A DNA stretch of 64,000 nt from a virus (taxonomy: Duplodnaviria > Caudoviricetes): positions 4,053-68,052 of IMG/VR virus record IMGVR_UViG_3300045285_000115, one strand, 5' to 3'. Below, one piece after another: positions 2,209 through 60,825 of this stretch. Numbering within the stretch: position 1 is the stretch's first letter; each line of letters begins with the position of its first letter. The translations under genes were made by a program, and so were the position numbers. Under the pieces are notes generated by a model, which made no database searches, was not told the DNA's origin, and saw nothing but the letters and a program-made list of their open reading frames with translations.

Positions 2209-3113
2209 TTGTGTGGCAGAACGGCATAAATGGTGACGGCCTGACTGAGTACCAGAACCCCCATCATTATATAACTGACGATCTCGCCGCGGCCCATGCC
2301 GCGCTCTTTCGCGCCAGCCTCGGACTTTTCTACCGTCCTCAAACTTTTTGCCAGTTCGCGAATAGCCTCCGCATTGGTGTCCGCCATCTTGCTCATAGAG
2401 CGCGTCATAGTTTCCTGCATCGAAACCATACCAGAGCCCAAAGAACTTAGAGCATTCGCTAGCTGCGGATCAGAAATGCTGGTCTTGCCCTGGGTCACGT
2501 CCAGTCGCGACTTGATGTCGTTAAACTGCATTTCCGAACTTTTGCGCAACTCAGCAATTTGCGCTTCAAAATTCTTTCTAACCTCCGAAAGAAACTCCTG
2601 CCCCTGTTTGATGAGAGCCGCAAATCCCGCCTCCATCTTCGTACTGGCGGCCGTGTTGCTGTCGTTCGTGGCGATGGCCTGCTTTTCCTGCGCCTGTAGG
2701 GCGGCCGTCAGCGCCTTGTCATTCGATCCGAACTGATTGTTTACTCCGTTGAACTTCTCTTTCGTCTCTGCAATGTGGCCGTCAACCTTGCCCTCTAACT
2801 CCGCGAAGGCGGTGTCAATCTTTCCATCGACCTTCGCAAGCGCCCCCTCCATTCTCGCCGTCATTTCGGCCCGTAAACCACCAACCGCCCGGTCGATGTC
2901 GGTCGGCACGCGGACCATATCTTCATGTTGAAGTTTGGTCGCCGTGTCGATTCCTGCAAAGCGCGTGTGGACCGACCGAAGCTCTGTCTGAAATTCATTG
3001 CGCAGAGCAACAAGCGGATCGCCCCGCGATACCTGCATCAAAGCTTGCGACAGCTTAGTAAGAATATCGCGATCGCCAGGGGTTTGAATTTCGCCGTCAA
3101 TGCCGTCCGCCAT
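2205..3113 (-). CDS. coiled-coil protein with C-terminal membrane anchor
   Basis: 302 aa, helical heptad composition, hydrophobic C-terminus. Confidence 0.75.
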   Translation of the reverse strand: MADGIDGEIQTPGDRDILTKLSQALMQVSRGDPLVALRNEFQTELRSVHTRFAGIDTATKLQHEDMVRVPTDIDRAVGGLRAEMTARMEGALAKVDGKIDTAFAELEGKVDGHIAETKEKFNGVNNQFGSNDKALTAALQAQEKQAIATNDSNTAASTKMEAGFAALIKQGQEFLSEVRKNFEAQIAELRKSSEMQFNDIKSRLDVTQGKTSISDPQLANALSSLGSGMVSMQETMTRSMSKMADTNAEAIRELAKSLRTVEKSEAGAKERGMGRGEIVSYIMMGVLVLSQAVTIYAVLPHK

Positions 3114-3122
3114 GCCCCTCTC

Positions 3123-3269
3123 CTACCACAGCAGCGCAACGACCGAGGCCAGCAGCGAGGCCGCAAATACCGCCCCGACGACCTCGACGACCAACTGCTC
3201 AACCGTCGTGAGCCCGCGCCACCAGGAGCGCCACTGTTTGATAGGATTCGCGTTATTCCGCTGGCTCAA
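3123..3269 (-). CDS. small membrane protein
   Basis: TTG start after GGGGG, C-terminal TM (VVGAVFAASLLASVVALLW). Confidence 0.4.
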   Translation of the reverse strand: MSQRNNANPIKQWRSWWRGLTTVEQLVVEVVGAVFAASLLASVVALLW

Positions 3270-3325
3270 GTTCGGCGCCCCCTAGGCCATGTGTGCAATT
3301 TCGCATGATTCGCGTGTGAATGTCG

Positions 3326-3362
3326 AAAAGCCGCCGCGTCGGGGTTCTGACGACGCGGCGGC
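3326..3362 (-). terminator. intrinsic terminator after porin gene
   Basis: 12-bp stem GCCGCCGCGTCG/CGACGCGGCGGC followed by TTTT on minus strand. Confidence 0.75.
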
Positions 3363-3400
3363 CTGGCAGGCGGATCGCGGCAGCGACCCGCGGGGAAAGT

Positions 3401-4225
3401 TCAGCGCGGCACAGGGAATAGAAACGCCACCTTGCCCATGTACCGCGTGCCGGTGTCAAGCCCACCAGTGAAGCCAGGAGCCCCGCCGCCGCTGGCGCCG
3501 AGGTTCGTCACCTCGAAGCCGCGCATCGGCCACGACACCATCGCGGACACGTCCACGGCATTGCCGGTAGGCTTGCCCGTCGTCTTGTCCAAGATTTGCC
3601 AGATCGCCCCGAGCTTGAGCATGGGCGCAAACGCCACGTCGGCCCCGTTGACGCTGCCGACACTGCCAGTGACACCGAACGCCTCAAAACCAGCCGCGAT
3701 GTAACTGCGCGGCCCGGCCTCCACGTTGACGCCGGCGGGCGGAATCGGCGTGAACGTGGGGAAGGTAATGCCACCGATACCGAGCCCGCCGAGGGTGCTG
3801 GAGATCATCGAAAGCGGATCGACGGTCCCGCCATAGCGAAACTCGACGGTCGAACTCCAGCGGCTCGCGATGCCGATGGGCTGATTCGCCACGACCTCGC
3901 CAGCCGAGATGTTCTGATAATCGACGCAGGCTTGCAGGCCGAGCCATTGCGCGGCGTGGCCCTTGATGTAGCCGAAGCACCCGCCGACCGTGCCGCCCGA
4001 AGCCGTCAGCTTGCCGCTCACAAGCGAGTTGGCGAAGAGCGGCGAACCGCTGGCCGAAGCCTGTTGTACACCCGCGCCGGCCTCGATGCCCCAATAGAAG
4101 CCTGAGGTATCGACGAAGAAAACCGGGGGTGCCTTGACCGGCATGACCGGCAGATCGGCCGCACCGGCGGCGTTCCCTGCGAGGATAAAGGCCATACCAG
4201 CGTAAAGAAGAGTCTTGATTTTCAT
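3401..4225 (-). CDS. outer-membrane beta-barrel protein, Omp25/Omp31/RopB-like
   Basis: signal peptide then ADLPVMPVKAPP...SGFYWGIEAGAG, amphipathic strands, aromatic near C-terminus. Confidence 0.75.
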   Translation of the reverse strand: MKIKTLLYAGMAFILAGNAAGAADLPVMPVKAPPVFFVDTSGFYWGIEAGAGVQQASASGSPLFANSLVSGKLTASGGTVGGCFGYIKGHAAQWLGLQACVDYQNISAGEVVANQPIGIASRWSSTVEFRYGGTVDPLSMISSTLGGLGIGGITFPTFTPIPPAGVNVEAGPRSYIAAGFEAFGVTGSVGSVNGADVAFAPMLKLGAIWQILDKTTGKPTGNAVDVSAMVSWPMRGFEVTNLGASGGGAPGFTGGLDTGTRYMGKVAFLFPVPR

Positions 4226-4377
4226 TTGTCCGTCCCTCCGAACCGCCCCCATTGGCGGAATGGGTTTGATAAGAATCCGATGACATGATTCGGGAAAGGG
4301 GCGAACGGGTTAGCCACGTGGATTTAAGGAATGGTGTGGTTTTTGGGTGACAGGCGGGGTTGATTCCCGATTACCGA

Positions 4378-4701
4378 CTACATTCTTCGGCTTGCGCCAG
4401 TCCCAAGTGAACCATCTCGGTTGATATTGACCGGCGTATCGTCCTCGCTGTTCAAAATGGCGTCCAGTTCTTCGACCGTTGCTGGCGTCTTGGGCGCCAT
4501 TCGATCAAGTTCCCGTTGTAGCAACCACGCCGCATCCTCACCCATTCCCTGCAATCCGCGCTGCGGCGGAATTGCGAGCACGAACGCGCCAAGCAAGTCC
4601 ATGGTCTCAACGCGCGCCCGTAGGACTTCGTTTTCGCGGCGTAGTTCTCGAAGCTGATCGATTGCCATTCTCATCGCGCGCTCTTCGTCGGTCATTGTCA
4701 T
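4378..4701 (-). CDS. hypothetical protein
   Basis: 107-aa ORF in minus-strand operon. Confidence 0.65.
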   Translation of the reverse strand: MTMTDEERAMRMAIDQLRELRRENEVLRARVETMDLLGAFVLAIPPQRGLQGMGEDAAWLLQRELDRMAPKTPATVEELDAILNSEDDTPVNINRDGSLGTGASRRM

Positions 4702-4789
4702 GCTCCATTTGGTTGCAGTGATCGGTACGCCAGTCGAAATTACACTTAGCTTCGTCGCCTCCGCAGTAGGGACACGGTTCCATAGTTTG

Positions 4790-5065
4790 TTAACCGACTG
4801 ATACCAACTTGCGGCCTTCGTAAGTTAGCGGCGTGTTGGTCCATGGATAGGGCGTTGAGTTATCGATCTTCAAAAGACCCCGCGTCTCAAGACGCTTGAT
4901 CGTGGTGAACAACGCTCCCGTCATTTCAAAGCAGCTAAACCGTTGTGGTCCAGCGAGCGCGCGGAGCACAGCCATATCGTCGCCGTACATCTTCTTAGGA
5001 AGATCATCGAGCGACGAAAAGCGATCTATGTGGACAGCCCCGCCCTTGAATTTAACTTTTGTCAT
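4790..5065 (-). CDS. hypothetical protein (possible winged helix)
   Basis: 91 aa; TIKRLETRGLLKID. Confidence 0.6.
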   Translation of the reverse strand: MTKVKFKGGAVHIDRFSSLDDLPKKMYGDDMAVLRALAGPQRFSCFEMTGALFTTIKRLETRGLLKIDNSTPYPWTNTPLTYEGRKLVSVG

Positions 5066-5089
5066 GGTAGCCTCGTTGCTAATCTTGGA

Positions 5090-5332
5090 TTAACCCCGTA
5101 TGCGGCACGCAATGACGACGCAGCGCCAGCCGAGGCGCAGCATTTCCTTGGCGCTCATGCGGAATTGGATGTGCGTTTCGGGATTGAGGCTCGAAACCTT
5201 GAGCATCCCGCCACCGTAACTGATCTTCGGCCCGGTCGGATGCCAGAACAGCGTGGCGTCCTTCGGCCATGGGATGTTGTGCTCGGCGAAGGCGCGTCTC
5301 AGGTTTTCCGCCTGCTCATGCGATGAAGTCAT
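5090..5332 (-). CDS. hypothetical protein
   Basis: start MTSSHEQ with AAGGAA upstream. Confidence 0.55.
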   Translation of the reverse strand: MTSSHEQAENLRRAFAEHNIPWPKDATLFWHPTGPKISYGGGMLKVSSLNPETHIQFRMSAKEMLRLGWRCVVIACRIRG

Positions 5333-5375
5333 GTTTGTTCCTTGCCTGTGATTGTTAACGTTGTGTTTACGACTC

Positions 5376-5687
5376 TCACTCGCACTGGCGGGCGTCGTAG
5401 AGGCCAATTTCTTTTTGGTCATCATCGTCAAGAGTGACGGCCGGGCTCGCCTCTAAGCTGGATGATTGCTTATGGGTACTACCGGCCGCCGGAAGATCGG
5501 GTAACGGCATCCAAAGCTCAGGCGTGCCTCGCACGCGCATAGACATGGTATTTATCATCACAGTCCATCCGCTAGAAGCACGGCGTGAGCCCGAATTGCA
5601 TTTCGCCATTCGTACTTCTTTTTGCCACACGACCAAAATCCATTTATCGGTAGGCGGCTCGTCGTGAAACACTGAACGCCAAGTCAT
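5376..5687 (-). CDS. DUF551-like phage protein
   Basis: W..V..EPP...ILV...WMPLPDLP pattern. Confidence 0.55.
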   Translation of the reverse strand: MTWRSVFHDEPPTDKWILVVWQKEVRMAKCNSGSRRASSGWTVMINTMSMRVRGTPELWMPLPDLPAAGSTHKQSSSLEASPAVTLDDDDQKEIGLYDARQCE

Positions 5688-5714
5688 CTGGCTCGCTCCG
5701 TTGGTAATGGGAAG

Positions 5715-5939
5715 TTAGCCTCGGAAGTTTCGACGTTTGGACGTAACCGCCCTCAATAGGCTGATAGAGTTTTTGGTGCTACCAAGCCCTTTTGCAGTTG
5801 GACCTTTATCGCCTATCTCAAATCCGGCCATGAATGCCTTCCTGAGCTGGTGATAAAGAACTCCACCATTGTTCCTGGGATTGCGCCATAGCGGCCACTC
5901 TCGATCCAAGAAAATCTCAAATTCCTTTTGAAGGCTCAT
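5715..5939 (-). CDS. hypothetical protein
   Basis: 74-aa ORF; YHQLRKAFMAG. Confidence 0.55.
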   Translation of the reverse strand: MSLQKEFEIFLDREWPLWRNPRNNGGVLYHQLRKAFMAGFEIGDKGPTAKGLGSTKNSISLLRAVTSKRRNFRG

Positions 5940-5941
5940 TG

Positions 5942-6181
5942 CTAACCTTGGGTTACCGATTCAGCCTTGGCGACAATAGAGCGAACGCAGGCCTCATCCT
6001 TGCCATTAAGGGCTCTGACAATCGCGCTTTCGATGTCTTGGAGCCACAGGAGCGAATCGCGCTGGGTCCGGTTCGTGTTAGACACGATAATCATGCGCGC
6101 GATGCGCTGATTGTTCGTGGCGTTATTCTTGGTCATTGGTAACGGAACCTTAGCCACGCCGACGGCGCTGAACTGGCTCAA
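5942..6181 (-). CDS. hypothetical protein
   Basis: ORF in operon, start uncertain. Confidence 0.45.
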   Translation of the reverse strand: MSQFSAVGVAKVPLPMTKNNATNNQRIARMIIVSNTNRTQRDSLLWLQDIESAIVRALNGKDEACVRSIVAKAESVTQG

Positions 6182-6305
6182 CGCCTGTACCGTTGCAATG
6201 TGGGCATGGAGGATAGGCCAGAACGATCGGATCGCCCCGCTCGTTATATTCGACAGCTCGGCACGTAGTGCCGGTCCCTTGGCATTGGGTGCATTTTTTG
6301 GTCAT
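6150..6305 (-). CDS. small Zn-finger protein (CxxCxGxG x2)
   Basis: CTQCQGTG...CPHCNGTG. Confidence 0.6.
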   Translation of the reverse strand: MTKKCTQCQGTGTTCRAVEYNERGDPIVLAYPPCPHCNGTGVEPVQRRRRG

Positions 6306-7881: not shown

Positions 7882-8243
7882 TTTCCCAACGCCTCCCGTG
7901 CGCGGCGAAAATCTGCTAGCCGAAAATCCCTGACCGACAGAATTGGCGATCCGCCATCCTTTGCCCTGGCATCAACGAACGCCTCGGCCTTCTCAGCAAA
8001 TGCAGCAAACGGCTCCAGTGTGGCAAGGAGGCGGGTGATCTCAGCGTCTCGGTTTTCCACCAGCTTGTGCAGGAGGGCGTTGGCGCTGCGGAGGTCGGCG
8101 ATCTCGGCGGCGGCTTCTCGGAGCAATGCTTCGCCGGCGTCGTCCCACTCGCCATGTTGGTCAACAATGAAGTTCGCTACTTTTTGTTCGATCTGCATGC
8201 GACCCTCAATGTAAATCAGGTATTTACGACTTCGTCTCGCCAC
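7878..8243 (-). CDS. hypothetical protein
   Basis: coiled-coil ORF, coupled. Confidence 0.65.
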   Translation of the reverse strand: MARRSRKYLIYIEGRMQIEQKVANFIVDQHGEWDDAGEALLREAAAEIADLRSANALLHKLVENRDAEITRLLATLEPFAAFAEKAEAFVDARAKDGGSPILSVRDFRLADFRRAREALGK

Positions 8244-8737
8244 TTCTCAAACAGTGTGCGAGGGTCCTTTTTAGAAATCATTGGGCACGGCCGCACATCG
8301 CATAGAACGAAGTGAATATGCGCCTCAAACAGAGTTTTGCACTTAGGACATGTTTCATCTTTGTATCCTTCCGCTAGCACTCGCTTGTGAAGCACCTGAC
8401 GGTTCACCAGTGCCAAGAGCACGTCGGCATGACAGGGCTGGTCGAGTGGACACCAGCAGGCCAGATTTTTGCCCTGTAGCGGGAGCAGCAAAGCCTCATA
8501 CTCGGTCGGCTGATCGCGGCGCATGTCCTCCATGCGCTGCTTGAACCAATGCACCTGAACGCGCGGCTCGCGCACGTCGTAATGGACCGAGCACATCTGC
8601 TCGTCGAAGTGTCCATAGCCGATGCCACAGCCGGGATAGTACGGATTGCCCCACCGGCTCGGCCGCCCGACGTAGATCGTGTTCGGTGGCATCCGCCATC
8701 CCGATTTACGTTGTCGTTGAATGCGAATTTGGCTCAT
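8216..8737 (-). CDS. DUF4326 domain protein
   Basis: IYVGRPSRWGNPY...LQGKNLACWC...CHADVLL signature. Confidence 0.85.
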   Translation of the reverse strand: MSQIRIQRQRKSGWRMPPNTIYVGRPSRWGNPYYPGCGIGYGHFDEQMCSVHYDVREPRVQVHWFKQRMEDMRRDQPTEYEALLLPLQGKNLACWCPLDQPCHADVLLALVNRQVLHKRVLAEGYKDETCPKCKTLFEAHIHFVLCDVRPCPMISKKDPRTLFEKWRDEVVNT

Positions 8738-8787
8738 TTCTTCGGCCGCCGTTGGTAACTCACCGTTTGCCGCATCACCAAATCTCA

Positions 8788-8834
8788 GGTGACCGATGAA
8801 CGAACGACTGTCGCGCCCCTCTCATGAAACAAAC
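8788..8834 (+). repeat. bipartite intergenic repeat copy
   Basis: GGTGACCG-N26-TCATGAAACAAAC. Confidence 0.85.
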
Positions 8835-9415
8835 CATGCTTATCCGGTTAAGACACACACCCTCTACATCTTGTGTCATGGAACTTCCTGTATAGGCGCG
8901 AAGATAACGTTGTCGGCCTCAGCTTCCGCGAGCGCGGCTTCAAGTGCGGTCATCTGATCGCTATGCACAATCCAGCACTTTTCGCCGTCGTCCCCCTGAA
9001 TGCCGACCTGCCTATTGTTGCCAGCGCGATAGGTGTCGAAACGCATTTGGATGATCTCGCGCGCGGCAGCATGAAGGGTCCGAAGCTTGCCGACTATCCG
9101 TTCCAATTCGTTGAGGGCGTCGTCCAACGCGTTGGGTGTCGATTTTCCTCGAAACTGGCCCCTTGGTGCCATTTGATCGCCCAGCGCGGCCGTCCGCTCG
9201 CCGAGCGAATAGGTCGCCTTCTCAGCCCGTTCGGTTTCCTCCACCGGATGACCGGGCCAGAAAAAAGTGCAGATAACGCTGCCGCCAGCATCTTTGACGC
9301 ATGGGCCGTCCAAATAGCCGGATTCTTCGAAACGCCACGGCTTTGGCCAGAAGTGCGACCATTCTTCGTGCGACATCAACATCTAGTCCCTGTGTGTGTT
9401 AACCGGATAAGCATG
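8835..9415. mobile_element. non-autonomous mini-transposon (MITE-like) with passenger gene
   Basis: perfect 17-bp TIRs CATGCTTATCCGGTTAA (8835-8851, 9399-9415) flanked by 8-bp direct repeat AAACAAAC (8827-8834, 9416-9423). Confidence 0.75.
8876..9382 (-). CDS. hypothetical phage protein (passenger of mini-element)
   Basis: 168 aa; GIQGDDGEKCWIVHSD motif. Confidence 0.75.
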   Translation of the reverse strand: MLMSHEEWSHFWPKPWRFEESGYLDGPCVKDAGGSVICTFFWPGHPVEETERAEKATYSLGERTAALGDQMAPRGQFRGKSTPNALDDALNELERIVGKLRTLHAAAREIIQMRFDTYRAGNNRQVGIQGDDGEKCWIVHSDQMTALEAALAEAEADNVIFAPIQEVP

Positions 9416-9426
9416 AAACAAACCAT

Positions 9427-9621
9427 TCATTCTGCCGCTTCCTCATATCCCGAACGCAGCCCCAGCGCTTTGAGAATCGTATCGCTCGGAGGCTTGCGCC
9501 CATTGACGACTTTGTTCACGTAGGACTGGCTTAATCCGTGTGCCTTCGCCCAGGCGCTTTCGCTTCCGGCCGTTTGGCAGGCTGTAGCAAGGCGTTTGCG
9601 GACATCTTCGCTCGAAAGCAT
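9427..9621 (-). CDS. XRE/Cro-like HTH regulator
   Basis: SESAWAKAHGLSQSYVNKVVNGRKPPS; 64 aa, no S24 peptidase domain. Confidence 0.85.
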   Translation of the reverse strand: MLSSEDVRKRLATACQTAGSESAWAKAHGLSQSYVNKVVNGRKPPSDTILKALGLRSGYEEAAE

Positions 9622-9628
9622 GGGGTGT

Positions 9629-9658
9629 CTAGTACCACAGGGGCATAAGATAGGTCAA
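9629..9658 (-). promoter_or_regulatory. leftward sigma70-type promoter, near-leaderless
   Basis: TTGACC-N18-TACTAG ending 7 nt before the HTH ATG. Confidence 0.55.
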
Positions 9659-9662
9659 CCGG

Positions 9663-9677
9663 GAACCAAATAGGAAC
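9663..9677 (+). promoter_or_regulatory. alphaproteobacterial LexA (SOS) box
   Basis: GAACCAAATAGGAAC = GAAC-N7-GAAC between divergent promoters. Confidence 0.6.
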
Positions 9678-9728
9678 ATAAATCACGAAAACGTGAATAG
9701 GAAGATCGCCCGTTATGCCCCTTTGGGA

Positions 9729-9756
9729 TTGACTATGCCTTTTCGGGCTTTATACT
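9729..9756 (+). promoter_or_regulatory. rightward sigma70-type promoter
   Basis: TTGACT-N16-TATACT upstream of + operon. Confidence 0.7.
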
Positions 9757-9784
9757 CCCCATCATCGAACGAAGGGGAACGGAC

Positions 9785-9964
9785 ATGACTCGAACACTTG
9801 CGATTATCACAAAACAAGGTTGCTTTGCGGTTGAATGGGAACGGCGCAACGGGCGCGTCTATCGCACGGCTTTCTCACACTATCTGCATGAGGCACTCGC
9901 TTGGCAGAGCATCATCGCACGGCACGACTGGTGTATGTCCGCGCATCCAGGCCCCGTTTCATGA
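9785..9964 (+). CDS. hypothetical protein
   Basis: 59 aa, RBS GAAGGGGAAC, hand-translated. Confidence 0.5.
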   Translation: MTRTLAIITKQGCFAVEWERRNGRVYRTAFSHYLHEALAWQSIIARHDWCMSAHPGPVS

Positions 9965-10098
9965 CCACAGCCTGGGAGCACAACACTTAACCCCCTCCCC
10001 GCCCCGGCTGGCGGCAACCATCCGGGGCGGGCTTTGGAGAGCACGAATACGGGGCTTTTTGGCAAAAGCGCCTCAAGCAACGAAACGGGGAGTTCCAG

Positions 10099-10464
10099 AT
10101 GGCTCAAGGCAGGACGATCCCTATCCGGGGAAGTGATTCGCCGCAAGGGCAAAGGGTGGTGGTGGGGATATTCTTCACCCGCTATCCCCAGCCGAAAATC
10201 ACCCCGATCGCGACGGCCGCGGATAATTCGATCCTCGCGGAAGCCGTCCCGATCAAGACCGAGAACGGATTTCCGGGATGGATTGTGCGGCTGCGGGCGC
10301 AAGGTTCCGCGCTGCCCAGGTTCAAGGACTCGGAGAATGTTTACCCTTCGTTAACCGCGGCCGAGGATGCCTATTGGCGCCAGTGCGAGGCCGAGCGGTT
10401 CCGTGAGGATGACGTGATCGAATGGGGCCATTGGCAAGAGGCCGTGGCGATCGCAGCGGAGTAG
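10099..10464 (+). CDS. hypothetical protein
   Basis: 121 aa, GGGAG RBS. Confidence 0.65.
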   Translation: MAQGRTIPIRGSDSPQGQRVVVGIFFTRYPQPKITPIATAADNSILAEAVPIKTENGFPGWIVRLRAQGSALPRFKDSENVYPSLTAAEDAYWRQCEAERFREDDVIEWGHWQEAVAIAAE

Positions 10465-10469
10465 CGAAG

Positions 10470-10691
10470 ATGGGCCAACAACTCGTCGCGCGCATCAAAC
10501 GCCGCAGCAAATATTGGGGCCAGACCGCGCCCAATCAATGGTTCGATGTGCGCGTAGTCGATGACACCCTCTGTCGCCTGCGCGGAAACAATAACAACTA
10601 CCGCCTAAGTGACGTGGTTCTCGGCGTGCGCCTGGATGATAACTCCGTCATCAATCTGGTGAACGGAAAACAAGAAAGTTTTGTTTCATGA
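10470..10691 (+). CDS. hypothetical protein
   Basis: 73 aa; stop TGA lies inside the TCATGA of a repeat copy. Confidence 0.65.
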   Translation: MGQQLVARIKRRSKYWGQTAPNQWFDVRVVDDTLCRLRGNNNNYRLSDVVLGVRLDDNSVINLVNGKQESFVS

Positions 10692-10725
10692 GAGCGGAGC
10701 GGCGCGGATAGCGTCATCGGTCACC
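10679..10725 (-). repeat. bipartite intergenic repeat copy (left arm of pair)
   Basis: TTTGTTTCATGA-N26-CGGTCACC. Confidence 0.85.
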
Positions 10726-10751
10726 GGAAGGGACCAGAAGGGGGAAAAAAG

Positions 10752-14872: not shown

Positions 14873-14880
14873 CAGTCTCA

Positions 14881-14928
14881 GGTGACCGATGACAGAAGCA
14901 ACAGCCACTCCGCCCTCATGAAACAAAC
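14881..14928 (+). repeat. bipartite intergenic repeat copy
   Basis: GGTGACCG-N27-TCATGAAACAAAC. Confidence 0.85.
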
Positions 14929-14965
14929 AAATCCCTAACACACACAAAACCCAAAGGAGACTCCC

Positions 14966-25649: not shown

Positions 25650-25791
25650 GTTTGGTTCATGAGAGGTGCGCCCGTAGGTTAGTCGGGGCGGTCAACCGAG
25701 GTAATCCCAGCAGGAAGCCGGCGCGTCAACACGGAGATTCTTACCTGACCGCCCGGATCACGCCACCGCCTGGGCCGGCGTTTGAACCAAA
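25650..25791. repeat. inverted pair of bipartite repeats (right arm degenerate)
   Basis: GTTTGGTTCATGA-N26-CGGTCAACC (25650-25697); CCTGACCG-N28-GTTTGAACCAAA (25744-25791). Confidence 0.75.
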
Positions 25792-31520: not shown

Positions 31521-31550
31521 TGAAGATTACCGGAACAAGTCGGGAAGAAC

Positions 31551-31596
31551 GGTGACCGATGATTCTTTCCTATTCGCTCCCCTCTCATGAACCAAA
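31551..31596 (+). repeat. bipartite intergenic repeat copy
   Basis: GGTGACCG-N26-TCATGAACCAAA. Confidence 0.85.
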
Positions 31597-45966: not shown

Positions 45967-46010
45967 TGTGCTTATCCTATAGTTGGTAACTCACCGTTTG
46001 CCGCATCACA

Positions 46011-46536: not shown

Positions 46537-46713
46537 TCATCTGCGGCGACTGTACCGCATCGAATAATTACCGCGGAAACGGCGGGACCAATCCCGCACG
46601 CGCAGCCAATGGCTCCAGTCTGCCCGCGTCCATTGGCCGTTCGGGCACGCCGCACGGACGGGGAGTACGATCAGCAGCGCGGCAATAACGATGGCAAAGC
46701 GCATGGCGATCAT
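46537..46713 (-). CDS. small secreted protein
   Basis: signal peptide MIAMRFAIVIAALLIVLPVRAA. Confidence 0.5.
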   Translation of the reverse strand: MIAMRFAIVIAALLIVLPVRAACPNGQWTRADWSHWLRVRDWSRRFRGNYSMRYSRRR

Positions 46714-46745
46714 GTTTACCCGGACAGCCCTACATCTTGTGTTCA

Positions 46746-46994
46746 TCAGCCGCCTCCGAGACAGCGTTTCGCGGTCCAATCGTGTGCGCGTTGAGCCCAT
46801 TGGGGTTCCCATGGCAACGCAAGAAACGGATGGATCAGCGCGTTGTGAACAAATTTCCAGAAAAACCACGAGGCAGGGTGGCTTCTGGCGCCGTAATAGA
46901 TGCATTCTCTGGCACAAGGCGAAGCTTCGAGCGGTCCACGCGTCTCGGTGCCACATCCTTCACAGTGCCACCCTCTTTCTGTCGCGATCAACAT
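46746..46994 (-). CDS. hypothetical protein
   Basis: 82 aa with CxxC. Confidence 0.6.
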   Translation of the reverse strand: MLIATERGWHCEGCGTETRGPLEASPCARECIYYGARSHPASWFFWKFVHNALIHPFLALPWEPQWAQRAHDWTAKRCLGGG

Positions 46995-47112
46995 CTAGTA
47001 GGTCTCAGCGCTTGTGTGTGTTCTTACGCCAAGTTCCGGGCGCGGAGAACTTGCGCGCCGCCCATACGGCGAGACACAACAGATAGAGCGGGACGAAGAT
47101 CAGGCGCGCCAT

Positions 47113-56243: not shown

Positions 56244-58532
56244 CTATGACTTCGGTTTACTTGCCGGCTTCGGCGGATGCAGCGCCTGATGCACGTCGAG
56301 CGCGTGTCCCGCCCGGTCCATCGCGGCATCATGTGACGCCTGCGTTCGTTCCAACTGGTGTCCCGCCTGATCCATGCGCTGGTCGTGGGCTTGACCCGCC
56401 ACATCCAGCCCATGCTGCCTACCTGATTCGCCGATGTCATGCACGGTTTTGAGGATATTGAGCCCATGTTCGGCGCGATCCATCGACTGGTCGTGCTGTG
56501 ATTGCGCCTGATCCTTGCCGTGGATGACCATTTCCCGGGCGAGTTCGGCGGTATGGATATCCCGCTGCGCCTGGATTTTCTCCGGTTCCAGCGCCATGTC
56601 GGCCTGTGCTTGCTGCGCCTTGGTCTGCGCCTGCATCTGCTGCGCCTTGGCCGATTCGACCTTGGCTTGAGCCGCAATGGTCGCCGGGTCGGGCGCAGCG
56701 GCTTGCGGCGGCGGGTCAATGACCAATCCCTTACTATCTTCCTTGAGCGCGCGCAAACAGCGGCGGAGAACTTCTTTCGGATCAAGGTAGCGCCCGACGA
56801 TCGGGTTCCCGGCAAGCTGCAAGAGCCCGAGCGCCTTGGCAATGCGAAAGATGTGCGACGGGACATTAGGGTCCGCGACCGGAACCAGGGGCGGGCACCT
56901 CTCCAGCGCCATCATGAATTTTTCATCGTTCCAGAAATCCTTCGGCGCCACCTCGTTCCCGCGCCAGAAGTCCTGCGGTTTCTCTTTGAAGAGATCAATC
57001 AACATTCCGAATTCTTCCGCCTGCGCGGTATACATGCCCTTGTGGGTCGCGACGATCACCACCATCGCCTGTTCGATTTGCGACAAGATGGTCCCGACTG
57101 GCACGTTTTGTATTTTTTCGGCGGCAGGAATATCGGCCGCGCCCCCGAGCGTCTTTGTCTGCGTTGTTATTCGATCAATCAAACCCAGCAGGCCAGGCGT
57201 CACGTCGCGATAAGGCATCGGCATGAACATTGTCCGAATGTCCTTGCCGCCCGTGTCGACCGGCGCAAACTCGCCCGGCGACACACGAATGATATTCGTA
57301 TTTTGTTTAAGCGCGGATTTTTCCGCGAGACCGCCCGCGAAGTTGGCGTACATTCCACCATCAAGCGAGATGCGCCATGCCGCCGTCATCGCCGCGGTGG
57401 AATTGCCGAGTATTTGCATCAGCCCAGTGCCATAGAATCCTGGCCCCGGCACATAGGGATATTTGACGTACAGCCGCTTGCGCCTACAATCCTTGTCGTC
57501 CTCGTTCCAATCACGATGCAAAGCGAGAATCTTGCGCGTGTCCTTGTCGATGGTCACGCGATAGGGCAAGGGAATCCCCTCGCCCTTGAAGTCGGCCGGC
57601 GCATAATCGTCAAGGTCGAGTTCGCATTGCGTTTCCCACAGCGTATAGGGTTGGTCCTCCTGCCGCTTCGGAATAGCGACCGTGCCCTGAATGCTCGCGA
57701 TTTTCTGATCGGTGCGCGACGTCTCGGGCGACGCCTGTGCCAATTCATAATCGACGTAGATGCCGAGCAACTGCATGCGGCGAAGCACCGACGGGCGCAT
57801 GTCGTCGATTTCATGGGTGATGCGCCCGCAGGCGGCAAAATCTTTTTTCGCGTCATCGACGATCAGTTTATCGGGCGACACACTTTCCGATACCGGCCGC
57901 CGGCGCATCGGACAGCGGTAGACCTTCTTGATGCCGCAGCCGCGAAAATACGGTCCCCATAGCAGCATGTGCGAGGTGTCGGGATAATAGGCCTTGTCGA
58001 TGTCGGTCAGGTAATGATTGAAGTCGCGCTCAAGTGCATCGGCCAAGTCATCGGTCGTGTCGTCGGCTTCGCCCACATCCTTGATCTTCGCCGGCCCTTC
58101 CGCTGGCAGCAATTCCCCAACCGTATTCGCCCACCCGCGCAGAATGGCATCGAGCATGAGAGGATTGGTAACGCTCGACATGCCCTCCACTGCGCCTGTG
58201 GATTCGGAGGCGATGGACTTCGGCTTCTCCAGCTTGAGGCCGAGCAGCGTCAAACCTTGCGAGACGTTGGACAAATACCCCAGCCGCGATTCATTGTCGG
58301 CCTCGATCGCCTCAATCAATTCCTCGCAGATCGTCCCGAGCTTCCCGGCGTCCATGTCTTTGGCGAGATTCTTAAACCACCCGTCGTCCGCGTCGTCACC
58401 TTCCTTGCGCGCCCGTCCGGAATTTAATTGGACGACAACACCGCCGTCGTTTTGTTTGGTGGCAATATCGCCCGTCGTCTCATCGACCGAGACCGGATCG
58501 TCGGTATCGATGGTGACGGCAATGTCAGGCAT
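56244..58532 (-). CDS. portal protein
   Basis: 762 aa after TerL; ELLPAEGPAKIK; PGFYGTGL. Confidence 0.85.
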   Translation of the reverse strand: MPDIAVTIDTDDPVSVDETTGDIATKQNDGGVVVQLNSGRARKEGDDADDGWFKNLAKDMDAGKLGTICEELIEAIEADNESRLGYLSNVSQGLTLLGLKLEKPKSIASESTGAVEGMSSVTNPLMLDAILRGWANTVGELLPAEGPAKIKDVGEADDTTDDLADALERDFNHYLTDIDKAYYPDTSHMLLWGPYFRGCGIKKVYRCPMRRRPVSESVSPDKLIVDDAKKDFAACGRITHEIDDMRPSVLRRMQLLGIYVDYELAQASPETSRTDQKIASIQGTVAIPKRQEDQPYTLWETQCELDLDDYAPADFKGEGIPLPYRVTIDKDTRKILALHRDWNEDDKDCRRKRLYVKYPYVPGPGFYGTGLMQILGNSTAAMTAAWRISLDGGMYANFAGGLAEKSALKQNTNIIRVSPGEFAPVDTGGKDIRTMFMPMPYRDVTPGLLGLIDRITTQTKTLGGAADIPAAEKIQNVPVGTILSQIEQAMVVIVATHKGMYTAQAEEFGMLIDLFKEKPQDFWRGNEVAPKDFWNDEKFMMALERCPPLVPVADPNVPSHIFRIAKALGLLQLAGNPIVGRYLDPKEVLRRCLRALKEDSKGLVIDPPPQAAAPDPATIAAQAKVESAKAQQMQAQTKAQQAQADMALEPEKIQAQRDIHTAELAREMVIHGKDQAQSQHDQSMDRAEHGLNILKTVHDIGESGRQHGLDVAGQAHDQRMDQAGHQLERTQASHDAAMDRAGHALDVHQALHPPKPASKPKS

Positions 58533-59058: not shown

Positions 59059-60825
59059 CTAGACTGGGTAGAGCGCCTTCGGCTGCGGCCTGTGCATAAC
59101 CCGGGCGATTTCTTCCGCCTGCGCTTCCGTGTCGGTGTTGGCAAGGCCAATATCCCGGAAGTGCTTAAGCGCTTGCGAAGTCGAGTCCGTTAGATCGTTA
59201 TACGCGTGTTTCGGGAATGTTTCCATTTCCTCTATCACCATCTCGGCCCAGTCCCTAATCGGTGCGAACACCATCAACTGCGAGAACGTCGGCTGCACCG
59301 CCAGCGCGCGAGAGAACTTATCCCCGCACACCGGCTGCAATTCGACCGACCAGGTGCGGTCGCGATAGCGATTCTGCAATTCCGAGGCCGCCGACATGCC
59401 AGACGCCTTCGCCTCGATCAATAGCTTGTCGACTTTGAACCGGTCGCAGGTGTCGGCGACGTGCTCGATCAACCCCCACGACGGCATGGCGCGGCGACGA
59501 TAGTTCGCCATGCGCATACGCGCGATGTGCGGTGAGGTTGCCGGCACGATCAGTTCCGCCGGCCAAATCATGCCGTCGATTTCGGTATCCACCACCAGCG
59601 GATCGATGCGCGGTCCCGAAAATTCGACAAACTTACGCCAGGCGTGGAGCAGAATAATCCGGCGGCGTTTCGCCTCTTTTTCCAGGAAGATGCCCCAAAC
59701 CGTGAGCGCCGACGGGCTGTTCGATTCCTTTTCGGTGAATGCGCCGTCAAGCGAGGCCATGATGTATTCGAGCGGCGGGAATTTGCCTTCCGGGTGATCC
59801 CACACCTGCCACCACGCGCGTTTGAAGATGCCACCGCCACGCGGGGCCGGCGCCTGCTGATATTGGCCCGCATAGGCGTAGGGACCTTTGACGGTCCGCA
59901 GCGATTCGACGACTTCGGGCGGAAAGCGCTCGACCCACGCCAATGTTTTGTTGCAAGCATCTGGGTTGCCCGCAACGTAGCGCGGATCGAACCAGCCGAT
60001 TTCGGTCTTGTGTGGTTCTCCATTCTGATCCACTTGCCTATCCCAGTCGTATTCCATGGGAATCATCAAATGACAGTACGGAAGCTGTAAGTCCAAGATC
60101 GCCCCTGCTACGTCCTGCGCATGAGAGCGCTGCATGATCGCCACAATCACATCCGTTACCAAATCATTCAGACGATCCGACATGGACTCCCGAAACCAGC
60201 GCACGGTTTCGGTTCGCACCACTTCTGATTCCGCTTCTTTGATATTGTGAGCGTCGTCCAGTATGATTCTTCCGCCGCGTTCGCCAGTGCCTACACCTCC
60301 AACCGACGAGGCGAGTTTCCACCCTTTCTTACTGTTGGAAATCTTGACCGAACCAGCTTGAACTATCTGCACCCTATCGGCCCACAACTCCTTGTAGGAC
60401 GGATGTAGCACCAGATCGCGAAAGCGATTGTTATCGCGCTCAGTCAAACTAGCTGAATACGAAAATGCGATATAGCGCTGATGTGCCAGGTTTTGCGGCC
60501 CCCATTCCCATGCTGGCCAGAACACGTCCGTACACAGCGATTTCATGAAGCCCGGCGGAACCGTGATCAGCAGCCGCTTGATCTCGCCGAACGTTACTGC
60601 TTCGAGATGCAGCACGATCGCATAAAGCGCCCACCCTTCGATCAATTCCGCTTCCGGCTCGAGCACGTGCCAGTAATGGCGGATGAAGGCCATCAGGCCG
60701 CCTTGCAAAACCCCATAGTCATCGAAATAGCCGCGGCGTGATTGTTCCGCGCGCAATAGTCGTTTGTTTAGTTCGGCAAGAAGCCGGTGTTTACGCTGTT
60801 CGGCGCGCGCAAATATGACATTCAT
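59059..60825 (-). CDS. terL: terminase large subunit
   Basis: VPPGFMKS (Walker A-like), RIILDD (Walker B), YAGQYQQAP, DLTDSTSQAL. Confidence 0.95.
   Translation of the reverse strand: MNVIFARAEQRKHRLLAELNKRLLRAEQSRRGYFDDYGVLQGGLMAFIRHYWHVLEPEAELIEGWALYAIVLHLEAVTFGEIKRLLITVPPGFMKSLCTDVFWPAWEWGPQNLAHQRYIAFSYSASLTERDNNRFRDLVLHPSYKELWADRVQIVQAGSVKISNSKKGWKLASSVGGVGTGERGGRIILDDAHNIKEAESEVVRTETVRWFRESMSDRLNDLVTDVIVAIMQRSHAQDVAGAILDLQLPYCHLMIPMEYDWDRQVDQNGEPHKTEIGWFDPRYVAGNPDACNKTLAWVERFPPEVVESLRTVKGPYAYAGQYQQAPAPRGGGIFKRAWWQVWDHPEGKFPPLEYIMASLDGAFTEKESNSPSALTVWGIFLEKEAKRRRIILLHAWRKFVEFSGPRIDPLVVDTEIDGMIWPAELIVPATSPHIARMRMANYRRRAMPSWGLIEHVADTCDRFKVDKLLIEAKASGMSAASELQNRYRDRTWSVELQPVCGDKFSRALAVQPTFSQLMVFAPIRDWAEMVIEEMETFPKHAYNDLTDSTSQALKHFRDIGLANTDTEAQAEEIARVMHRPQPKALYPV

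Follow-up and report, generated by a model that had tools for sequence, protein, structure and literature searches.

What is the 581-bp segment, bounded by inverted repeats and filled by a single gene, that lies in an early operon of this virus, and could transposition have brought it there? The window analysed here is a stretch of 64,000 nucleotides (bases 4053-68052 of a 68,052-bp IMG/VR record rated complete) and it is a true tailed phage, with genes for a large terminase (59059-60825), a portal protein (56244-58532), a tail fibre and an ejection protein. A sequence-only reading of the window had described a mini-transposon of 581 bp with perfect 17-bp terminal inverted repeats, an 8-bp target duplication and an ORF of 168 aa, and we re-found all of these features at 8827-9423 (Table 1). 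As set out below, we regard the segment 8835-9415 with high confidence as a non-autonomous derivative of the IS1595 family, that is, a mobile insertion cassette, in which one passenger ORF has taken the place of the transposase.

Table 1. Coordinates of the cassette, its flanks and related features in the window
Feature	Position	Strand	Remark
Predicted IS1595-derived cassette, 581 bp	8835-9415	ORF on minus strand	between two early genes
Left 8-bp target-site duplication, AAACAAAC	8827-8834	no strand	
Right 8-bp target-site duplication, AAACAAAC	9416-9423	no strand	3 nt past the 64-aa HTH gene's stop codon
Element end after the passenger stop codon (right end relative to the ORF)	8835-8875	+	17-nt tip perfect
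Element end before the passenger ORF (left end relative to the ORF)	9377-9415	-	carries the 17-nt tip
Passenger ORF, 168 aa	8876-9382	-	no assigned function
Copy of the dispersed bipartite intergenic repeat	8784-8834	+	box 1 GGTGACCG, box 2 CTCATGAAACAAAC; last 8 nt are the insertion target
Second cassette of the same IS1595 lineage, decayed	46711-47022	-	alignment with family ends

Anatomy and setting of the 581-bp element

The 17-nt arm at 8835-8851 is the perfect reverse complement of 9399-9415, and at 82% the inverted repeat reaches 39 nt (8835-8873 versus 9377-9415). The ORF occupies the interior, taking up 507 of the 581 bp; 41 nt remain on its stop side and 33 nt on its start side. The end that precedes it contains the 17-nt tip, a CA-rich block, a Shine-Dalgarno-like AGGGA and an ATG at nucleotide 34 from the tip, while the end that follows its stop codon has a subterminal part common to other cassettes (see below) and resembles the right end of ISAcr1. 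With up to three mismatches allowed, the 17-mer is present in the window at the two element ends only; shuffled window sequence gave 0.04 matches on average, and none of 100 shuffles gave two. No further copy was found in the whole 68,052-bp record.

Formally, the direct repeat around the element measures 15 nt (8823-8837 and 9412-9426), because the right arm ends in the same four bases, CATG, that precede the left duplication as part of the phage repeat. From the family data described below, the true duplication is 8 bp long.

The insertion point is intergenic and no ORF is interrupted there. The HTH gene past whose stop codon it lies (9427-9621, minus strand) is the first gene of a leftward early operon that diverges from the promoter region 9622-9785, and the passenger is co-oriented both with this operon and with the next gene, a DUF4326 gene (8216-8737). 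Lying between this 64-aa HTH gene and the rightward genes, 9622-9785 is a divergent control region. It contains an inverted pair of 14 nt with 93% complementarity (9635-9648 and 9713-9726), and a sigma-70-like site facing rightward, TTGACT-16-TATACT, is found at 9729-9756.

We searched IMG/VR, the GenBank phages, the JGI metagenome contigs and a set of 5.8 billion proteins for close relatives of the phage and found none; a DNA search of GenBank phages returned short DUF4326 matches only. The best neighbour of the flanking DUF4326 gene is 64% identical, and no relative of the flanking HTH gene was found. An exact 30-mer of the reconstructed empty site had 0 matches in the JGI metagenome contigs, as had a 22-mer from the right flank alone. 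With neither a close relative nor an empty-site allele to hand, we therefore infer insertion in this phage lineage from the structure of the element and from its family.

The element ends recur in viral and bacterial genomes

An exact scan of IMG/VR placed the 17-mer in at least 54 contigs. In nearly all of those listed it is followed by the same CA-rich block, and this in turn by either a Shine-Dalgarno box and an ATG or a conserved block just past a stop codon; matches of this kind are not due to chance. Among the matches listed, the 15-nt tip is found as inverted pairs 281-1897 bp apart, and in 30 of 40 such pairs the outer 8 bases are identical within the pair and differ between pairs. A scan with a degenerate tip, run on one genome per prokaryote species, gave at least 120 contigs, of which those listed are mostly from Alphaproteobacteria and Betaproteobacteria, many of them metagenome-assembled genomes, with many inverted pairs that have perfect 8-bp duplications and that measure down to 91 bp. 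A third scan, using the window's own subterminal variant, added at least 90 further viral stretches, with perfect 8-bp duplications in 34 of the 59 pairs among the matches listed.

In total, IMG/VR viral contigs and bacterial genomes hold at least 99 distinct elements with perfect 8-bp duplications. The 99 elements listed comprise 7 MITEs (no ORF of 50 aa or more), 74 single-ORF cassettes and 18 bigger or more elaborate elements, which are IS or transporter-IS copies of 1.06-2.3 kb. In the 92 elements that bear an ORF, the longest ORFs fall into 76 BLASTP clusters, figures which bear out the earlier suggestion that such elements move phage accessory genes. Pfam matches above the curated cut-off were obtained for a few passengers (C5 DNA methylase, DUF1281_C, HAD hydrolase); matches below the cut-off, which are leads only, include PAPS-reductase-like, MazG-like, ASCH and DHHA1. 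The cargo is a typical phage accessory repertoire. A search of 50,697 GenBank phage records found no tip-bounded elements.

Larger copies bounded by the same tip encode an IS1595-family transposase

An IS with the same terminal repeat, for which the sequence-only reading had suggested a search, does exist. Larger copies (1.06-2.3 kb) that share the 15-nt tip and the 8-bp duplications encode a protein of ~340-370 aa matching PF12762 DDE_Tnp_IS1595 (E about 1e-32) and PF12760 Zn_ribbon_IS1595, and six of the transposases scored 171-199 bits against NCBIfam NF033547 "IS1595 family transposase", for which the cut-off is 75. By tblastn, the transposase gene lies inside the inverted repeats of elements of 1057-1170 bp in L094, L098 and L108 (bacterial contigs, perfect duplications) and inside copies of 1.4-2.3 kb with extra genes in L113, L165, L027, L033 and L238; the tip-bounded transposase-bearing copies of L027 and L033 span 3979-5875 and 4422-6205, respectively.

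In the plasmid collection, the closest annotated relative is ISAcr1 of Acidiphilium, the transposase of which is 69% identical to that of L108. Its copy in pACRY02 is 1080 bp long, with ends CTTGCCTATCCGGTTG and the 8-bp duplication ATATATTG, and these ends agree with 13 of the 15 tip bases. ISAcr1 is like the window element in its 8-bp duplication, in the type of inverted repeat and in a similar subterminal palindromic box. It differs in residing on plasmids of Acidiphilium cryptum and A. multivorum, whereas the window element is found in a phage and has an unrelated 168-aa ORF in place of the transposase.

The ISSod11 subgroup, whose ends we take to be nnnGcnTATC and whose members we assume to be 1.0-1.1 kb long, is matched by the tip CATGCTTATC, and the autonomous tip-bounded copies measure 1057-1170 bp; placement of the lineage in this subgroup is a lead only. 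Among the matches listed, no transposase-bearing copy with the window's exact subterminal sequence was found, and the nearest phage-borne transposase copies listed have 1-2 differences from the window element within the 15-nt tip and further ones in the CA-rich block.

The account of the IS1595 family in PMC8101967 (citing Siguier, Gagnevin and Chandler 2009) gives as its hallmarks 8-bp duplications and a single transposase with an N-terminal zinc finger and a C-terminal DDE domain. The 581-bp element has the 8-bp duplication, and its terminal inverted repeats are common to members that encode the IS1595 transposase; the DDE_Tnp_IS1595 transposase with zinc ribbon that would make it an autonomous IS is absent. 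A six-frame search of the whole 68,052-bp record with PF12762 and with a phage-borne transposase as the query returned nothing for an IS1595 transposase, which extends to the entire record the earlier statement that the window has none. Since neither the ORF nor the 68-kb record holds a transposase, the element is a derivative and not an IS, and any movement needs a transposase supplied in trans.

IS ends that surround unrelated genes are conventionally called a mobile insertion cassette. The 581-bp element has IS-type ends, a passenger, no transposase and the parental duplication length, all of which indicate a transposase-less IS1595 derivative of that class. The description of the element as a non-autonomous mini-transposon with a passenger gene thus finds support both in the family of at least 99 elements and in the IS1595 copies with the same tip. 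The inverted repeat, which recurs before genes in many contigs, had also been considered as a phage promoter or leader motif; this reading was dropped because paired ends, 8-bp duplications and transposase-bearing copies appeared.

Cassettes of this family move as units

Three comparisons bear on movement. First, over 690 nt a cassette from the genome of Ferrovibrio xuzhouensis (L149) shares 80% identity with one from a viral contig (L213); their alignment stops no more than 5 nt from the element boundaries, the flanking sequences show no relationship, and each cassette has a different duplication. Second, two paralogous 568-bp cassettes (L037 and L249) occupy two sites of one viral contig, and their homology is confined exactly to the elements. 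Third, we rebuilt the empty site for every element and compared it with all loci gathered in this analysis. For the L051 cassette this revealed an orthologous, uninterrupted site in a related phage contig (L211), with flanks that are 83% identical and with the target octamer present once, 7 of its 8 bases matching. Taken together, and at the level of sequence comparison, these cases show that cassettes of this family move as units.

We further infer that the transposase is supplied in trans, which is plausible because the phage contigs L027, L031, L250 and L265 hold both cassettes of the window subtype and transposase-bearing copies. Indirect support comes from the family cassettes, which occupy different sites and have differing duplications, and from the one filled/empty pair. 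For the window element, the proposed mechanism is as follows. Two IS ends of about 40 nt each enclose the passenger ORF in place of the transposase gene. A DDE transposase with an N-terminal zinc ribbon, provided in trans by an IS1595 copy in the host chromosome or on a plasmid, by a co-resident prophage or by a co-infecting phage, would have made the insertion. The cassette would thereby have entered the intergenic site 3 nt past the HTH gene stop codon and duplicated 8 bp of target, the target being the AT-rich tail of one bipartite repeat copy that fits the weak preference of the family. The passenger would then be expressed by read-through from the early-left promoter, being co-oriented with the operon, and the conserved element end would supply the Shine-Dalgarno-like box and the start codon at nucleotide 34.

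The window holds a second, decayed cassette of the same lineage (Table 1). Its stop-side end aligns with that of the family but lacks 9 internal nucleotides and carries 2 substitutions; on the start side, 33 subterminal nucleotides survive, the same start heptamer among them, and the 15-nt tip is lost. It contains an 82-aa ORF (46749-46994) that begins with the same ATGTTGAT. A decayed cassette that has retained its ORF shows that this phage lineage was colonised at least twice and that old insertions become fixed genes.

This relic is also one of the reasons to ask whether the 581-bp element, while a real IS1595-derived cassette, is by now an immobile, fixed gene, either because no compatible transposase is ever available to it or because its ends are dead. 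Such a reading would agree with the lack of a transposase in the phage record, with the decayed ends of the second cassette, which show that such insertions become fixed, and with the result that no second copy of the window cassette was found in the collections searched. However, both tips are perfect and match the conserved family tip at 15 of 15 positions, and the perfect duplication points to a recent event. Moreover, cassettes of the window subtype and transposase-bearing copies are carried together by the four phage contigs named above. We therefore consider immobility unlikely, though it is not a negligible prospect.

The insertion site is a suitable octamer within a bipartite repeat

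The duplicated octamer consists of the last 8 nt of box 2 (CTCATGAAMCAAAC) in the repeat copy 8784-8834, as the sequence-only reading had observed, and removal of the element in silico restores an ordinary box 2 with unique sequence after it. That reading had gone on to suggest that the element may target the repeat family. Site-specific insertion of this kind would account for the position of the duplication at the tail of box 2, for the CATG before the duplication, which mirrors the last four tip bases, and for the right junction, at which 12 of 14 box-2 bases are rebuilt. The target sites of the family point elsewhere. In the 63 unique sites listed, the duplications are 66% A+T, versus 49% for the flanks, and they share a weak palindromic preference: G or A at position 1, C at position 8 and A or T at positions 2, 3, 6 and 7 (about 80-90%), with T at -2 and A at +2 outside the duplication. 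Beyond this preference, which can be written T-N-[RWWNNWWY]-N-A and which the window site (caTg, octamer, cAtt) fits, the target sites are unrelated. Within the phage, one of about 15 full repeat copies is occupied and none of the others is, box-2 copies with an equally good fit to the preference, such as those at 14915 and 22232, have no insertion, and the relic cassette at 46711 lies outside the repeat copies. Targeting of the repeat is therefore not supported, and we regard it as very improbable; the box-2 tail simply happened to be a suitable AT-rich octamer.

That no mobile element is present at all, and that a pair of regulatory palindromes or the scar of a local inversion or duplication surrounds an ordinary gene, is a reading to which we give next to no credence: a palindrome-like box does lie inside each end (CTAGATGTTG and CTACATCTTG) and could be a regulator binding site, but identical tips with about 100 different 8-bp duplications surround genes of unrelated kinds in phages and bacteria that are themselves unrelated, transposase-encoding copies are bounded by these tips too, and a filled site with its matching empty site exists in the family. 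At the level of sequence, the family data already refute this reading.

The bipartite repeat itself is spread over 1526-51824 of the window in about 15 full copies, each consisting of GGTGACCG, about 25 nt and CTCATGAAMCAAAC; besides the copy at 8784-8834, examples are 1526-1573/1601-1655, 10680-10728, 14877-14933, 22231-22281/22372-22421, 25651-25697 and 31547-31596. Copies point either way with respect to the neighbouring genes, two pairs of inverted copies could fold into long hairpins, and the middle part falls into two classes, GATGA... and GCCCCG.... A reading of the repeat as a sigma-70 promoter does not fit. In addition, a perfect 25-nt direct repeat, GGTAACTCACCGTTTGCCGCATCAC, is present at 8754-8778 and 45985-46009, 37 kb apart; each copy adjoins a box-1 or box-2 element of the bipartite repeat, and none would be expected by chance.

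The passenger gene and its translation signals

No homologue spanning the whole passenger was found, the matches sharing either the C-terminal ~60 aa only or the N-terminal half only. The C-terminal ~60 aa are a domain present in many phage proteins of differing architecture, and the N-terminal half recurs in other contexts that have no inverted repeats. One of these is a JGI metagenome contig of 1006 bp (L086, 94-298), whose copy of the N-terminal half is 81% identical in DNA sequence, is frameshifted by one base and precedes a ParB-like gene; it too has no inverted repeats. Since the N-terminal half is joined there to a different C-terminal part, the passenger gene is a mosaic of two modules. 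The passenger gave no match in Pfam or PHROG and sub-threshold leads only in an Atlas search; its AlphaFold2 model is mediocre (pLDDT 66), and a comparison of the model with BFVD returned nothing at E ≤ 0.001. By analogy with the sister cassettes, it is presumably a dispensable phage accessory gene.

Across the family, start codons lie 20-70 nt from the tip in 60 of the 74 single-ORF cassettes listed, and the offsets in this set have modes at 33 nt (10 cassettes) and 43 nt (15 cassettes). The heptamer ATGTTGA starts 24 cassette ORFs among the matches listed, and the proteins that these ORFs encode are unrelated. Transposase genes of the autonomous copies begin 52-66 nt from this end, so that passengers occupy the former place of the transposase. 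That the start codon has a fixed position within an IS end suggests a portable expression signal.

A complete promoter inside the element upstream of the passenger is unlikely, because the distance from tip to ATG is 33 nt only, and no promoter was found on the minus strand. Family-wide, 89 of 135 comparisons, made with a crude gene caller, have the passenger on the same strand as the best flanking ORF. For the window element, expression probably depends on read-through from the early-left promoter.

Comparison with known systems

MIC231 is an IS231-derived cassette of the Bacillus cereus group that belongs to the IS4 family and resides in bacterial replicons, and it differs from the window element both in its IS family and in its replicons. 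For IS1595 itself, the text of PMC8101967 refers to 'transporter IS' forms, described by Siguier, Gagnevin and Chandler (2009). Mobile insertion cassettes and transporter IS are like the window element in that IS ends surround passengers with no role in transposition and that the duplication has the parental length; mobile insertion cassettes also share with it the presumed mobilisation in trans. Unlike the window element, transporter IS keep the transposase. Compared with MIC231 and transporter IS, the lineage of the window element consists mostly of single-ORF elements, is found largely on viral contigs and places the start of the ORF at a fixed distance inside a conserved end.

MITEs are also non-autonomous and have inverted repeats and target duplications, and true MITEs of 91-200 bp with the same tips exist in the family of the window element. 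The latter, at 581 bp and almost entirely coding, is neither short nor non-coding as a MITE would be. Very small mobile elements that are polymorphic among close relatives have been described in mycobacteriophage genomes as MPME1 and MPME2; they measure about 439 bp and add a 6-bp sequence at the left inverted repeat, with no target duplication (PMC3029335). In contrast, the window element has a true 8-bp duplication and unrelated ends; MPMEs have no link to IS1595, and their hosts are phages of Actinobacteria.

IS1595, its transporter forms, MITEs and mobile insertion cassettes are thus all established, and the striking repeat structure of the window is explained by an ordinary element of known type. 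The scale and form of this IS1595 lineage in uncultured phages, by contrast, seem to be unreported in the literature searched, in which the tip string is absent and IS1595 cassettes or MITEs with target duplications in phage genomes are not described. The gain and exchange of small accessory genes of phages ("morons") are usually ascribed to illegitimate or relaxed homologous recombination. Here, classical transposition moves such genes, and its events can be counted: about a hundred insertions with intact duplications, nearly all with different cargo, in uncultured phages and prophage-bearing genomes. The cassette boundaries, moreover, offer a clean, sequence-defined way of extracting mobile phage accessory genes for functional screens.

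We tentatively put forward, as a possibility for which the chances are a little short of even, that this IS1595 lineage has become adapted to phages as a set of plug-and-play single-gene cassettes, with ends that provide a ribosome-binding site and start codon on one side and an ORF termination region on the other, and that it is a main route of accessory-gene exchange among phages of soil and freshwater Proteobacteria. If so, any ORF between the ends would be translated wherever the cassette lands in an operon, and the minority of phage-borne transporter-IS copies would supply transposase to the cassettes. Anti-defence genes might be exchanged by the same means, and the system would be invisible in databases of cultured phages.

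Further arrangements of tip-bounded elements

Some loci contain more than one element or end. In L112, two different cassettes lie in tandem (2899-3294 and 3303-3806) with exactly one copy of their shared 8-bp duplication, CGTTGATC, between them; this octamer was hit more than once, and a small array of cassettes resulted. In L238, a larger element (8412-10676) flanked by a perfect duplication contains a cassette-type left end immediately ahead of its transposase gene, and L042 has two right ends 43 nt apart (9726-9794). These nested and adjacent ends suggest that ends have been exchanged or stacked between cassettes and IS copies.

Many short scaffolds of the draft genome of Cupriavidus sp. 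UYPR2.512 (L088, L103, L105, L132, L134, L138, L151 and L175) stop at the IS tip shared by this family, a pattern that a multi-copy IS1595 element would produce by interrupting the assembly. This strain is a cultured host with an apparently active relative.
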